Source: Balneolaceae bacterium (GTDB lineage Bacteria; Bacteroidota; Rhodothermia; Balneolales; Balneolaceae). Taken from it: a stretch of DNA of 64,000 nt. Position numbers and translations under genes: made by a program. Every line of letters starts with the position of its first letter. The stretch's first letter is position 1. The DNA lies in NCBI GenBank assembly GCA_009711805.1, contig VEMX01000028.1:59307-123306 (forward strand). Reading direction: 5' to 3'. Shown in pieces: positions 38,376-43,765 of the stretch. The notes under the pieces are model-generated. The model was not told where the DNA came from. It did not search any database and saw nothing but the letters and a program-made list of their open reading frames with translations.

Positions 38376-38503
38376 AACCTTTTTACACTTCCCTGTGCGA
38401 TAGGCTGTAAAAGCTTATAAAAATCAAAAATAGCTCAACTATTTTGTAACTATTTTCGTCCAACCTCGTGAAAGCGTACCGAAAACATAAAAGAACCACA
38501 CAC

Positions 38504-39859
38504 ATGAAAAAACTATTTTCACTATTCCTCTTCATCCTTTTCATTTATGGGGGTACATCATTTGCTCAGGAGTCACGCACTATTACTCTCCAGGAAGCAA
38601 TCGAGATTGCTCTTGAAAATAACTACCAGCTAAAACAGGCAAAGAATAATCTTGATTTAGCCGATAAACAAATTACAAGTGAATATGCTGATTTTCTTCC
38701 CAACATAAGTTCCAGTTTAAGTTATGGAAAAACAGCGGGGCAGCAGTTTATTCAAGACCAGGTAAGTTTTTCGGATGTTACATCAGCATCCGCATCTGGC
38801 AGAATATCGGCTTCTATTTCGTTATTTGATGGATTTAATAATATCAATACTCTTCGACAAAGTGAGTACAGTAAATTATCCAATGAAGAACAATTAGAGC
38901 GAGCAAAAGAAAATGTAATTTTCAATACAGCCTCAGCTTATCTCTCGGTTTTAGTAAATACTGAGCTATTGGAAATAGCAGAAGACAACCTGGAAACCTC
39001 AAAGAAACAACTTGAGCAAACTAAGGCCCAGGTAGAAGTAGGTTCAAGGCCTTCTGTTGATTTATATACCCAGGAATCTGCAGTAGCGACTAATGAGTTG
39101 AATGTAATACAACGAGAGAACCAATTAAGATTAAGCAAGGTTCAATTAATTCGGCAACTTCAGATTGATCCACTCATAGAATATGAATTTGAAATCCCGG
39201 AAATAGCAGGAGATTATGAACTATCAGGTGTTGATAGCTACCATTTAAGTGAGCTTATTGATGATGCTTTGTTAAACCGTTCTGACCTCAAAAGTGAAGT
39301 AGCGAATATCCGGTCTCAGGAATTTCAACTCAAAATAGCGAAGGGTAGTTTATATCCTTCTATATCAGCAAATGCTACTCTTTCTACGCGATGGAGTGAT
39401 CGGTATTTTTTACCTGACGCTACCTTCTCAGATCAGTTTTTTGATCAACAGGTTAATAAAGGCTTTGGTTTTTCTTTTAACTTGCCCATTTTCCAAAACT
39501 GGAACCGGATACATAGTATACAATCGGCAAAAATTCAGCTTAAAAATTCCAAGCTTTCCTTAGAAAATTCTAAGCTGGGAATTATCCAGGAAGTAACCCA
39601 GGCATACAACGATTACATTGCTTATCAACAACAGTTAGAGTCTTCCAGAAAAGCATTAACGGCAAGTGAAAAAGCTTTTGAAACACAACAAGAGCGTTAC
39701 AAAGTAGGAGCAAGTACACTCATTGAACTAAGTCAGACTCAGTCTGAATATGTTTCTGCTCAATCTGATTACACTCAGGCTCAGTATAACTTGATTTTCC
39801 AAGAGAAATTGTTGGATTATTTCTTAGGAAAACTGAACAAAGACACCGTAAAATTTTAA
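38504..39859 (+). CDS. TolC-family outer membrane efflux protein
   Basis: ATG at 38504 gives the signal peptide MKKLFSLFLFILFIYGGTSFAQ; the tracked ORF starts at GTG 38468. Two OEP repeats (LTLQEAIEIALENNYQLKQA ...). Confidence 0.88.
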   Translation: MKKLFSLFLFILFIYGGTSFAQESRTITLQEAIEIALENNYQLKQAKNNLDLADKQITSEYADFLPNISSSLSYGKTAGQQFIQDQVSFSDVTSASASGRISASISLFDGFNNINTLRQSEYSKLSNEEQLERAKENVIFNTASAYLSVLVNTELLEIAEDNLETSKKQLEQTKAQVEVGSRPSVDLYTQESAVATNELNVIQRENQLRLSKVQLIRQLQIDPLIEYEFEIPEIAGDYELSGVDSYHLSELIDDALLNRSDLKSEVANIRSQEFQLKIAKGSLYPSISANATLSTRWSDRYFLPDATFSDQFFDQQVNKGFGFSFNLPIFQNWNRIHSIQSAKIQLKNSKLSLENSKLGIIQEVTQAYNDYIAYQQQLESSRKALTASEKAFETQQERYKVGASTLIELSQTQSEYVSAQSDYTQAQYNLIFQEKLLDYFLGKLNKDTVKF

Positions 39860-39891
39860 TCAACACAATTTTTTAATTAAGGGATAGGAAA

Positions 39892-41289
39892 ATGAGTAAA
39901 AAGAAATCATCAACAAAAAAGCTTCTTATATGGACAGGAGTTATTTTTGGGATCATTATAGTTGGAGGGCTTGGATTGAAATACGCCGGTGTTATTGGCG
40001 GAAATGATTCGGGTATAGGAGTACAAACAGCACAGGCTAAACTTAAAACTATTACGCAGCTTGTTTCTGCCTCAGGTAAAGTTCAGCCAGAAATAGAAGT
40101 GATTATTCGCCCAGATGTATCGGGTGAGATTATTAAACTTGCTGTAAAAGAAGGTGACTTCGTACGTAAGGGAGATTTACTGGTTCGCATTAAACCGGAT
40201 ATTTATCAAGCCAGAATTGATGAACTCAATGCTGCTTTATTGACACAGAAAGCACGGCTTGAACAAACCCGGGCCTCACTGATACAGGCAGAATCATCCT
40301 ACTTGAAGAATAAGGAGCTCTATGAAAAAGATATAATTTCAGAAATGGATTACATCCAGGCTAAATCGAATTGGGATTCCCAAAAAGCCAGCCTTAAAGC
40401 TTCTGAATATCAAATTCAAAGTGCAGAAGCTCAGCTTCAACAGGCAAAAGAAGAACTGGAACAAACAGTGATTCGAGCCCCCCAGGATGGAACCGTAACC
40501 GGACTTGCTGTCGAAGCCGGGGAACGTGTATTAGGTAATTCCCAGATGGCGGGTACCGAAATGATGCGTATTTCCCTCCTCGACATGATGGAAGTTTTGG
40601 TAGAGGTTAATGAAAACGATATCGTAAATGTAAGCAGTGGAGATACCGCTCGTATAGAGGTTGATGCATATCCTGAACGAAGATTTAATGGAGTGGTAAC
40701 TGAAATTGCTAACTCTGCTAGAATCCAGGGAACGGGTACGAATGAACAGGTTACAAATTACCAGGTAAAAGTTCGTATCGTAACTCCTCACAATCTCTCT
40801 AAGAGTGGAGAGCAGTTGGTACGGAATCAAGCTTCAGAAAATCCGGAGAAAACATTTACACCTGATTTTAAACCTGGAATGTCTGCAACGGTAGACGTAG
40901 AAACAAAGACTGCTACCAATGTGGTATCTATTCCTATTCAGGCTGTAACCGTTCGTGATTTTGCAAAAGACAAGGACCCAGACTCTACGAAAACAACTAC
41001 TACAGAAGCTCAAATTGTGAATGCTTCCGATCAAGTATCTGACGATAATTTGACTGTGAATAAAGAAGATATTCGAAAAGTTGTGTTCATCGTGGAAGAT
41101 GGAATTGCAAAAAGAAGTGAAGTTGAGACAGGAATTAGTGATAATACTCATATTCAAGTATTATCCGGAGTGGAAGCAGGTGATGAGATTGTAATTGGTA
41201 GTTACCGTACACTTTCAAAAGACCTGGAAAACGGTGATAAAGTAAATGTTAATAATGAAAAGGCTGTATTAGCCAATTTAGAAGATTAA
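39892..41289 (+). CDS. Periplasmic adaptor (HlyD/MacA membrane-fusion protein)
   Basis: N-terminal anchor, lipoyl-like [25 protein letters not shown], a long coiled coil and a beta-barrel domain. Confidence 0.88.
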
Positions 41290-41303
41290 AAACAGGATAT
41301 TTG

Positions 41304-42029
41304 ATGGATAATGGAGCAGTAATACAGATAACGGATCTTACTAAAGTATATCAAATGGGCCAAACAGAGGTTCATGCGCTTGCCGGGGTAAGCTTTGATG
41401 TAGAGGAAAATGAGTATATCGCCATCATGGGGCCATCCGGTTCAGGAAAATCTACCTTGATGAATATGATTGGATGCCTGGATACTCCAACAAGTGGGGA
41501 ATATATATTAAATAACAACCGGGTAAGCGAGATGGATGATGCAGAACTCGCTGAAATTCGAAATCGTGAAATTGGCTTTGTATTCCAGACGTTTAATCTT
41601 TTGCCAAGAACCACCTGTATCTCAAATGTAGAACTCCCGCTTATTTATTCCGGAATGAGGTCTTCGGAACGAAAGGAGAAAGCTATACAGGTACTTGGAA
41701 AAGTAGGCTTGGGAGACAGGGTAGATCATAAACCTAACGAGCTCTCCGGTGGTCAGCGTCAGCGTGTGGCTATTGCTCGTGCGTTGGTTAACAGCCCCTC
41801 TATATTATTAGCCGATGAGCCGACCGGTAACCTGGATACCAAAACAGGAGAAGAGATTATGCATCTTTTTGAAGAATTATACCGGCAGGGAAATACCATT
41901 ATTGTAGTAACCCACGAAAATGAGATTGCTGAACATGCACGACGAATTATTCGCCTGCGAGATGGTCTTATTGAATCGGATACAAACGTTGAAAACCCAA
42001 CCCTGGCAAATCTGGAAATTGCCGTCTAA
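41304..42029 (+). CDS. ABC transporter ATP-binding protein (MacB/LolD-type)
   Basis: Walker [11 protein letters not shown]-loop, signature [15 protein letters not shown], Walker [13 protein letters not shown]. Confidence 0.93.
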
Positions 42030-42057: not shown

Positions 42058-42090
42058 AAAGGCGCCTGATTATTCAGAGCGCCTTTTTTT
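42058..42090 (+). terminator. Rho-independent terminator of the efflux operon
   Basis: aaaggcgc...gcgccttttttt. The ggcgc/gcgcc stem (42061-42065 with 42079-42083) is followed by a T7 run. Confidence 0.8.
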
Positions 42091-42134: not shown

Positions 42135-42621
42135 CCGGAACGAGGGTACTTCCCAGAAAAGTGTGTCTTCCGGTAGCATAAAAAAGTCTTCTTGTGTAGG
42201 TTTGGCGGCGCTGGCAGGAGTCTGTGAGAAATGGCGAGGAAAATACCAGCGATTTGCCTCCTTAAACAATGAACCAAGATATCGGGCGGGGTTCACCTCT
42301 CTAAACTACGGGGGTATTAAAGAAGGTGCAACCCATGTGGCGGGAGATCCCGGATCGGCGACTTCACTTCGTTACGCCTTGTCCGGGATGACGGGGTTTT
42401 CCCGCACGCATCCCGATTTGATCGGGAGAAGATGCGGAGTCACCTTGTTAGGGCATGTAGCCATGGACAAGCGGTGCTACCGAAGAAAAGTACCCAATTA
42501 AATACGATACGAATCTTTTTCCACCTGAGCCAGCTACCAACTAACTCAAAAAATAAGTGCGTTGTTAACCTACACAAGCATGACCTCCGGACACACTAAT
42601 TGGGTAAGTACCGGAACGAGG
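42135..42621. mobile_element. GC-rich noncoding structured element with imperfect inverted ends and 11-bp flanking direct repeats (MITE-like, or a large structured RNA)
   Basis: - Direct repeat ccggaacgagg at 42135-42145 and 42611-42621.
- Left end ggtacttccc..gtgtgtc..cttgtgtaggtt (42145-42202) is complementary to the right end aacctacacaag..gacacac..gggtaagtacc (42567-42612).
- No credible ORF.
- It lies between convergent genes. Confidence 0.55.
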
Positions 42622-42643: not shown

Positions 42644-43765
42644 TTATCTGATACTAATACCAATTCCGGCATTAGCCGTGAAATATTCGGCAAGGGTAGC
42701 TTCACCATAGATAGCTAAAAATCCAAGTTTGAGTCGAAATCCACCCAAAAGATGAGCATTTGATTCACTGTCAATTTCAAATGAGATGGGATCTTGCAAT
42801 ACAATATAATCCTGGGTAACAGTAGTGGGATTAAACGATGGTACCGGGTAGTCGCCCTCAATATCGAGCTCAAATGTAGCTTTTTGAAAACCAATACCGC
42901 CATACACAGATATCAGTGGCAGGGACTTGCCCACCAAGGCATTAAAGACAAACGTATTAGTGGTTGCGGTAACAAGCTGAGAACTAAAATCAGGGTTGGG
43001 ATTAGAGACTAATGAGGGATCATTTGGATCTCTTGTAGCCGACGGTGAAGGGGGTAAACTGAGGTCTCCATCCATATTCATTTGAGTAAAGCCCACCATT
43101 AGCGAAATATCAACCGGAAGAAGTTTATCACCAGGCAGCCACTGGGTAATATCATGTTTGATGGCTCCCCCCAACAGTCCAATACTTCCATAATTTCCAA
43201 TATCTGTTTCAGGCACAAATCGTGCTGTTATATCAGTTCCCTTCATGAGGCCTAGTCCAGCTTGTACAATAGGGGCAGGAACAACAGGCAAACCTGTACC
43301 TCCCGGCATATTAAACTGACCAAGTTCATTGCGGTTTGGATCATCAGGATCATCATAGATTTTTAAGAGAGGGCCGTCATCATTACTTCCCGCTATGGTC
43401 TGGGTAACGGGATTCCCTCCCTGGGCAACATTAATTTTTTGAAGGGTCAGGGCAGAAATATCAAATTCCCGGGCCGAGGAGGGGACAAAAGCAAGAGAAG
43501 AGCGTATCTGAAGACTCAATCCCAACGTCTTCTTGGGTGCTGCTGTCTCGGTCCAACCAGCGTTTAAACCTGTACCAAAGCCTGTTGGAAAAGGCTTTAA
43601 GTATTCTTTTGTCAATAAGGTAGCATCTTCTTTTCCTGCCCTTAAAAAAGCACCAACACTGGTAAACTGTGCTGCAACAGGGGCAATACTTAACAGAGTA
43701 ATAAGAACTGTTAACGCAAAACTCTTGGCAGTGGGGGAGTAATTCTCTTTCATGACGATCCTCAA
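42644..43765 (-). CDS. Predicted outer-membrane beta-barrel protein of unknown function
   Basis: Signal peptide (MKENYSPTAKSFALTVLITLLSIAPVAAQ if the start is 43753). Alternating amphipathic beta-strand pattern rich in G/T/N. No recognisable family motif. Confidence 0.55.
   Translation of the reverse strand: MRIVMKENYSPTAKSFALTVLITLLSIAPVAAQFTSVGAFLRAGKEDATLLTKEYLKPFPTGFGTGLNAGWTETAAPKKTLGLSLQIRSSLAFVPSSAREFDISALTLQKINVAQGGNPVTQTIAGSNDDGPLLKIYDDPDDPNRNELGQFNMPGGTGLPVVPAPIVQAGLGLMKGTDITARFVPETDIGNYGSIGLLGGAIKHDITQWLPGDKLLPVDISLMVGFTQMNMDGDLSLPPSPSATRDPNDPSLVSNPNPDFSSQLVTATTNTFVFNALVGKSLPLISVYGGIGFQKATFELDIEGDYPVPSFNPTTVTQDYIVLQDPISFEIDSESNAHLLGGFRLKLGFLAIYGEATLAEYFTANAGIGISIR

Follow-up and report, generated by a model that had tools for sequence, protein, structure and literature searches.

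A 468-bp MITE-like element of a Balneolaceae genome, very probably an internally deleted IS256-family insertion sequence

Genomic context of the element

The 64-kb stretch of Balneolaceae DNA analyzed here (64,000 nucleotides, referred to as the window) carries a 468-bp element (42145-42612) between two convergent genes, an ABC-ATPase gene (41301-42029, + strand) and a gene for an outer-membrane-type DUF6588 protein (42644-43765, - strand; locus tag FH748_08540). A hairpin followed by a T-run, host sequence that predates the element, separates it from the ATPase gene (Table 1), and this hairpin (42058-42090) is read as a terminator that would serve both convergent genes. The first-pass annotation of this DNA had located the element between convergent genes and behind a terminator hairpin, and had described it as more GC-rich than its surroundings. 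Both observations hold: the GC content is 49.4% in the element (42145-42612) and 57% in its core, against 43% across the window.

Upstream of the element, the region 38468-42029 (and L001) is a MacAB-TolC-like efflux cluster, with genes for two FtsX/MacB permeases, an OEP, a membrane-fusion protein (MFP), and the ABC ATPase. Three small ORFs lie between the permease and OEP genes, one of them with a weak Phage_holin_3_6 match. The OEP-MFP-ATPase order beside DUF6588 is conserved in Balneolaceae relatives, in which the loci compared end before the permease genes.

The nearest relatives of the DUF6588 protein are only 64-68% identical, and a scan of GTDB genomes with a DUF6588 protein pattern returned no relatives, the species being too divergent. 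The gene order in the relatives is the same as in the window (RsgA, DUF6588, then the convergent ABC ATPase, MFP, and OEP). In five orthologous loci (L027, L028, L030, L032, and L033), the spacer between the convergent stop codons measures 77-83 bp and holds just a terminator hairpin; the empty sites that the first-pass annotation had suggested looking for in relatives, therefore, do exist. The five loci amount to three distinct sequences from at least three lineages, as L027 equals L028 and L032 equals L033 across the spacer. The terminator hairpin is conserved by position in these spacers, not by sequence, and the relatives are so distant at this level of protein identity that the exact empty-site sequence is unalignable. 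The window spacer, for its part, is 614 bp long, and consists of 138 bp of host sequence, the 468-bp element, and 8 bp of duplication.

Inserted 3' of two convergent genes, the copy probably occupies a neutral spot and has no effect there, with the probable exception that DUF6588 transcripts must traverse the element before they reach the shared terminator. A scan for consensus promoters and terminators found nothing, and also missed the evident terminator hairpin. No tRNA or tmRNA was found with ARAGORN, no second copy of the element was found within the window, and blastn against plasmids and phages left the element unmatched.

Ends and target-site duplication

A repeat search returned a 23-nt imperfect inverted repeat at the extremities (42145-42167 with 42590-42612, 78% complementary) and a perfect 12-nt inverted repeat further in (42191-42202 with 42567-42578). 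Because other genomes contain independent full-length copies in which the terminal and the subterminal repeats are both seen again (alignment A1), these repeats are not chance matches, and the roughly 55-nt imperfect inverted ends are, for the same reason, a feature of the family. The nested pairing of the ends, as first noticed from the letters alone, is accordingly real and sits where it had been placed. A shuffle statistic for perfect repeats was not used, since its count of inverted repeats is flawed by the inclusion of local palindromes; the corresponding figure for a perfect direct repeat of at least 11 nt, which arose in 18 of 500 shuffles, was set aside.

The same 8 bp, GGAACGAG, stand on both sides of the GGTAC...GTACC boundaries. 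An 11-bp duplication had been proposed initially, and the 11-mer CCGGAACGAGG is indeed present as a direct repeat at 42135-42145 and 42611-42621, but the true duplication is the 8-bp one: in the right copy of the 11-mer, the leading 'CC' still belongs to the element, as its last two bases, and in the left copy the final 'G' already does, as its first base; the bases that match them in the opposite flanks agree by chance. Members of the IS256 family create target duplications of 8-9 bp (PMC3189936), a value that the 8-bp duplication of the element fits.

Table 1. Parts of the element and its flanks (window coordinates), and full-length relatives (coordinates of the respective locus).
Feature	Coordinates	Strand	Evidence
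Hairpin and T-run, host sequence predating the element	42058..42090	.	read directly from the sequence
Left target-site duplication GGAACGAG, 8 bp	42137..42144	.	directly adjoins the first base of the element; same 8-bp geometry in L020 and L005
Left end (IRL): terminal repeat GGTACTTCCCAGAAAAGTGTGTC, subterminal repeat CTTGTGTAGGTT (42191-42202), and 5' untranslated leader	42145..42202	+	
Transposase start codon TTG and two codons, TTG GCG GCG (M-A-A)	42202..42210	+	alignment to L005, L007, and L020
Transposase remnant A, about codons 297-328: LAGVCEKWRGKYQRFASLNNEPRYRAGFTSLNY	42211..42306	+	tblastn with the L005 and L007 transposases
Foreign GC-rich segment (57% GC), 121 nt, two hairpins	42307..42427	+	unmatched in full-length IS copies
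Transposase remnant B (VTLLGHVAMDKRCYRRKVPN), ending at a premature TAA	42428..42501	+	blastn, alignment A1
Out-of-frame end of the transposase gene and 3' untranslated region	42502..42566	+	alignment with L020 and L004 (3' region)
Right end (IRR): subterminal repeat AACCTACACAAG (42567-42578) and terminal repeat GACACACTAATTGGGTAAGTACC	42567..42612	+	repeat search, blastn, A1
Right target-site duplication GGAACGAG, 8 bp	42613..42620	.	
Full-length copy L020	143-1484		
Full-length copy L004	1141-2484		
Full-length copy L005	6160-7500		
Full-length copy L007	4494-5829		

Full-length relatives

A pattern built to match both ends (GGTACTT N0-1 CCCA N3-4 AGTGTGTC) was run on the GTDB species genomes. 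It matched 23 stretches, mostly from Balneolaceae (Balneola, Gracilimonas, Fodinibius, and MAGs), many of them about 100 nt from contig ends. In four of the matched loci, blastn of the element placed the ends about 1340 bp apart (1336-1344; Table 1), and the two ends of the window element are 81-92% identical to those of such ~1340-bp elements in Balneola, Gracilimonas, and other Balneolaceae. The autonomous insertion sequence (IS) with matching GGTACTT... ends, for which a search had been recommended at the outset, was, therefore, found in related genomes.

The ~1340-bp elements encode transposases of 389-406 aa (404-406 aa for L005 and L007). The L005 and L007 proteins match PF00872 Transposase_mut with E-values of 1e-76 and 4e-78, respectively, and the L005 protein scores 306 bits against the NCBIfam model NF033543 'IS256 family transposase', for which the cut-off is 150. 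Perfect 8-bp duplications flank L020 (GATCGGGC), and L005 is flanked by TATAAATG; the duplication is absent at L004 and L007, i.e., at two of the four full-length copies, and at the 130-bp derivative L021 described below. The transposase genes of both L020 (212-1381) and L004, from Balneola sp. OZ253957.1, carry an in-frame TAG at about codon 91, where L005 and L007 read GAG/GAA. An intact 389-aa transposase, 99% identical (P0138), is encoded on the same chromosome as L020 and L004.

Metagenomes frequently contain transposase homologues that are 80-99% identical, as a rule on contigs of 1.3-1.5 kb. The nearest full-length proteins are 77-87% identical across the protein remnants of the window copy, and at this level none of the full-length relatives appears, from sequence comparison, to be the direct parent. 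P0211/L034 was considered as the closest parent and rejected, as it comes from another sample and its DNA is no closer. A search of JGI metagenomes with the exact deletion-junction pattern yielded no true match; its sole match, L026, is a chance one in an unrelated GC-rich organism.

Shortened copies also occur in other genomes. Gracilimonas halophila KCTC 52042 carries a 130-bp mini-derivative (L021:803-932), in which nothing is left but 90 nt of the left end and 40 nt of the right end, meeting at the microhomology ACACAAGAAGA; it is evidence that this IS lineage has repeatedly produced deletion derivatives. In an uncultured Balneola sp., a truncated copy (L024:2513-2830), comprising the right end and about 200 nt in inverted orientation, is separated by 34 nt from the left end of another copy, which appears to be full-length; this is a nested or adjacent insertion.

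Interior of the element

Comparison with these relatives accounts for the element part by part. The left end (42145..42202) is 92% identical to that of the full-length Balneola copies L020 and L004 (blastn) and is conserved in alignment A1. The L005 and L007 proteins start with MAATKPP at the same TTG as the window copy, in which the start codon and two further codons are followed by an internal deletion of about 890 bp. The junction falls inside a microhomology at 42203-42210 (TGGCGGCG versus TGGAAGCG), and the bases right after it, CTGGCAGGAG..., match the full-length gene at about codon 297; the fusion is in frame. The transposases of L005 and L007 match the element interior in tblastn with E-values of 1e-14 and 2e-10, and remnant A is 77% identical to P0138 and 80% identical to P0211.

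Remnant A gives way to a segment (42307..42427) that stands in for about 100 nt of transposase coding sequence, the stretch encoding ...MIYTTNWIERLNKDFRRVLK.... From 42428, homology to L020 and L004 resumes at 81% (blastn) and runs through VTLLGHVAMDKRCYRRKVP; the right 186 nt of the window copy are likewise 81% identical to L020 (blastn). A 2-nt deletion produces the premature TAA at 42499-42501, and a 10-nt inverted repeat (42491-42500 with 42597-42606) is a by-product of this deletion.

The 112-aa ORF at 42163-42501, annotated in GenBank as hypothetical protein FH748_08535, has no Pfam domain. The initial statement that the element has no credible ORF holds insofar as this ORF is a transposase fragment. 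A supposed third copy of the end motif (42476-42495) did not survive the comparison: it is actually the CYRRKVP coding remnant of the transposase C-terminus, where the relatives read GGTGCCC, not GTACCC. The suspicion of a composite or nested element proved right for a different reason, as an unrelated small repeat is nested in the transposase remnant. As to the internal hairpins listed at first, some belong to the unrelated 121-nt segment, and the others span junctions.

Only the start codon, two codons, and roughly the last 90 codons of the gene remain, and these are interrupted, so the element is a non-autonomous derivative and not an IS proper. The intact Mutator-type DDE transposase gene of ~400 aa that marks IS256-family members is missing from it. 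It does have what marks a MITE, namely a small size (468 bp), terminal inverted repeats, and a target duplication, without a transposase.

Copies in the source genome

A search with the ORF translation matched proteins of the FH748 MAG only, to which the cluster listing added further ones. At least 17 annotated 'hypothetical protein' ORFs, on 13 contigs of this MAG, carry the foreign segment (FH748_00735, 00860, 01745, 04715, 05255, 06035, 06980, 08535 (the window copy), 11110, 11150, 12595, 12705, 12820, 14775, 14790, 15980, and 16275). For the copies other than that of the window, copy number, ends, and duplications are deduced from annotated ORF translations only. All five ORFs long enough to cover the deletion junction show it (AALAGVCEKW, in one variant AVLAGVCEKW), and 12 of the 17 family ORFs end with the KV(P/S)N* stop, 11 of the 16 if the window copy is left aside. 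Where ORFs run out of the left end of the element, the flanking residues differ between copies. Since the segment, the junction, and the premature stop are shared derived features, one derivative then multiplied; the translations suggest its amplification to at least 17 sites, by which it would define a MITE family.

Most of the other FH748 copies have 26 extra residues (78 nt; VIAGEVYTKTRDLPGTGKVVNKEAVA) inside the segment. Because these residues of the canonical segment are gone from it, the window copy is a secondarily shortened member. Four proteins (P0123, P0124, P0131, and P0137) form a subfamily with a different 3' continuation (ITLLARIIHEWMQNGDLYT), reading ARIIHEWMQNGDLYT instead of GHVAMDKRCYRRKVPN after ...RRCGITLL; this seems to indicate a further rearrangement or a second 3' variant.

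Raw-read assemblies also mark the limits of the repeated unit. Logan assemblies are k=31 de Bruijn graphs (PMC12424806). In the Logan assembly of SRR9198946, the flanking genes lie on two separate contigs that end at 42173 and 42583 (L002), both exactly 30 nt inside the element boundary (42144/42145 on the left, 42612 on the right). As this is the offset predicted for k=31, the boundary of the repeat would coincide with that of the element; the repeated unit is the element itself, and the flanking CGGAACGAG, therefore, lies outside it.

No autonomous full-length partner is present in the window, and among the 120 best transposase homologues, most of them unnamed, no named entry has an FH748 tag. 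Contigs of insertion sequences are often dropped by MAG binning. Mobilization in trans by a cognate transposase is proposed.

Taken together, the 468-bp element is very probably a transposase-less, internally deleted derivative of an IS256-family insertion sequence, and belongs to a MITE-like family that has proliferated in the genome of this Balneolaceae bacterium. The MITE reading, one of two that had been put forward initially, is borne out by the terminal repeats, the duplication, the lack of a transposase, the many copies, and the matching autonomous IS in relatives.

Alternative explanations

The other initial reading was that of a gene for a large structured noncoding RNA whose class has yet to be described, with the paired ends as its closing helix and the internal hairpins as its functional domains. 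It draws on the intergenic position, on the GC-richness of the element relative to the genome, and on the folding of the whole element, which is better than that of shuffled sequences (z -3.5 on the + strand, -4.5 on the - strand). However, this excess is due to the terminal repeats, as it vanishes once they are removed (42203-42566, z -1.2), and the equal folding of both strands is expected of DNA inverted repeats, not of a strand-specific RNA. The Rfam scan that had been advised matched no family over the whole window at gathering thresholds, and relaxing the threshold to E-values up to 10 in the region gave only chance matches of terminator-like sRNAs on the upstream terminator. In addition, the sequence shares homology in its ends and coding part with an IS that encodes a transposase, an 8-bp target duplication borders it, and the orthologous site of relatives is free of it. 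The first-pass annotation had itself named a decayed protein gene as evidence against an RNA, and the RNA reading fails on that count because the interior is a recognizable decayed transposase gene (tblastn E 1e-14). It is already largely refuted, and is extremely improbable: the element is an ordinary miniature transposon, and no new structured RNA.

Two further readings accept the transposase homology and dispute what became of the sequence. The element could be a lone IS fossil, dead and decayed at its site; the similar ORFs of the MAG would then stem from independent decay or segmental duplications, and there would be no mobilized MITE family. This would agree with the failure to find an autonomous partner in the MAG (in the window, and among the named entries of the best 120 homologues), with the knowledge of other copies from ORF translations alone, and with the occurrence of independent deletion derivatives in this IS family, such as the 130-bp L021 and the truncated L024. 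Nevertheless, independent decay would not repeat the same segment in 17 of 17 ORFs, the same junction in all five that reach it, and the stop caused by the 2-nt deletion in 12. The copies are, moreover, spread over 13 contigs with different flanking residues, and the Logan contigs branch exactly at the repeat boundaries, no further out, so the repeated unit is the element and not a larger duplicated block; a fossil decayed in place is very improbable. The element could also have been retained for a functional small protein, for example, a truncated transposase that inhibits transposition. Its frame would start at the left end and run as far as the former transposase stop, over 112 aa in the window copy and 139-147 aa in canonical copies. 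This frame is indeed maintained across the large deletion, the replaced segment, and the loss of 78 nt, and several copies keep the long ORF (P0127, P0129, and P0131). Against this, 11 of the 17 annotated ORFs consist of the 60-84-aa distal part only, P0125 and P0258 are frameshifted, and the product, which has no Pfam domain, is missing both the DDE core and the N-terminal DNA-binding region. An open stretch of 69 codons in GC-rich DNA is, moreover, not very improbable. Selection for such a protein is scarcely credible.

The nested GC-rich segment

The 121-nt segment of the window copy (42307-42427) is a shortened form of a ~199-nt segment present in the canonical copies of the family. It has no counterpart in full-length IS copies, at the DNA or protein level, and occurs in the window only inside the element. 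Its fold z-scores, -1.9 and -1.8, are marginal. When 1.84 billion representative proteins were searched with a profile of the MITE ORFs, the FH748 copies, one frameshifted copy (P0258), and two outside relatives were matched. One of the latter, P0259, contains two tandem units of about 51 aa each, of which one is 51% identical to VIAGEV...GMTGF (pairwise E 1e-13); the other, P0263, is 66% identical to the translated segment over 32 aa. From these matches, the segment seems to be one of a broader family of small repeats whose translations turn up as spurious ORFs.

The segment resembles REP/BIME-like or other small palindromic intergenic repeats in its GC-richness and hairpins, and in that its translated form recurs in the spurious ORFs of other organisms, once as two tandem units (P0259); this is a resemblance only. 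It differs from them in that no conserved REP-type tetranucleotide or RAYT gene is attributed to it, its outside relatives being known as translations only, and in its occurrence solely inside the IS256 derivative within the 64 kb of DNA compared. It is unlikely, if conceivable, that the segment is a separate and widely distributed palindromic repeat, captured and disseminated by the MITE and possibly endowed with an activity of its own. If so, the MITE would be a carrier that spreads a functional structured segment, for example, a hairpin terminator or insulator, or the substrate of another enzyme.

Proposed origin and spread

Comparison with the full-length relatives suggests the following steps for the origin of the IS256-derived element. 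A parent IS of ~1340 bp would have lost about 890 bp at a short microhomology, a loss that would have joined the start codon and two further codons to about codon 297 without a change of frame. An unrelated GC-rich palindromic repeat segment would have taken the place of about 100 bp of the coding sequence that was left, and a 2-nt deletion would then have given the premature stop. The derivative would have retained both complete ends, with the 23-bp terminal and the ~12-bp subterminal repeat, and the window copy would subsequently have lost 78 nt more of the inserted segment.

IS256-type transposition follows a copy-out-paste-in route via a circular intermediate and leaves an 8-bp target duplication. 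A cognate IS256-family DDE transposase, acting in trans, may still recognize the ends of the derivative, excise a circular copy, and integrate it with an 8-bp staggered cut. In this manner, the derivative could have reached at least 17 sites.

Relation to known systems and significance

With the IS256 family (PF00872/NF033543), the element shares homologous terminal inverted repeats and the 8-bp duplication, and what remains in it of the transposase start and C-terminus is correctly ordered and oriented. It differs from family members by the absence of ~890 bp, including the whole DDE catalytic core, so that it cannot encode its own transposase, and by the replacement of a further ~100 bp with unrelated sequence.

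Bacterial MITEs reportedly form a general class that arises by internal deletion of insertion sequences, as reviewed by Delihas and by Siguier, Gourbeyre, and Chandler. The element resembles them in being small, with intact terminal repeats and a target duplication, without a transposase, and in at least 17 copies in one genome; the amplification of one derivative is evident from its shared derived features. Nevertheless, its family stands at the large end of the range (~470-550 bp), it still has recognizable coding remnants and a nested unrelated repeat as a passenger, and its mobilization in trans is putative. A literature search for named IS256-derived MITEs yielded no direct precedent.

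For the search for new large RNAs, the result means one candidate fewer, and the nested repeat segment is a minor curiosity. The main value of the finding lies in annotation, as FH748_08535 and no fewer than 16 similar 'hypothetical proteins' of this MAG prove to be spurious ORFs within a MITE. Beyond this genome, the analysis documents several independent deletion derivatives of a Balneolaceae IS256-family IS, and defines the lineage to which they belong, with GGTACTT...AAGTACC ends and 8-bp duplications, which is widespread in Balneolaceae and breaks their assemblies.
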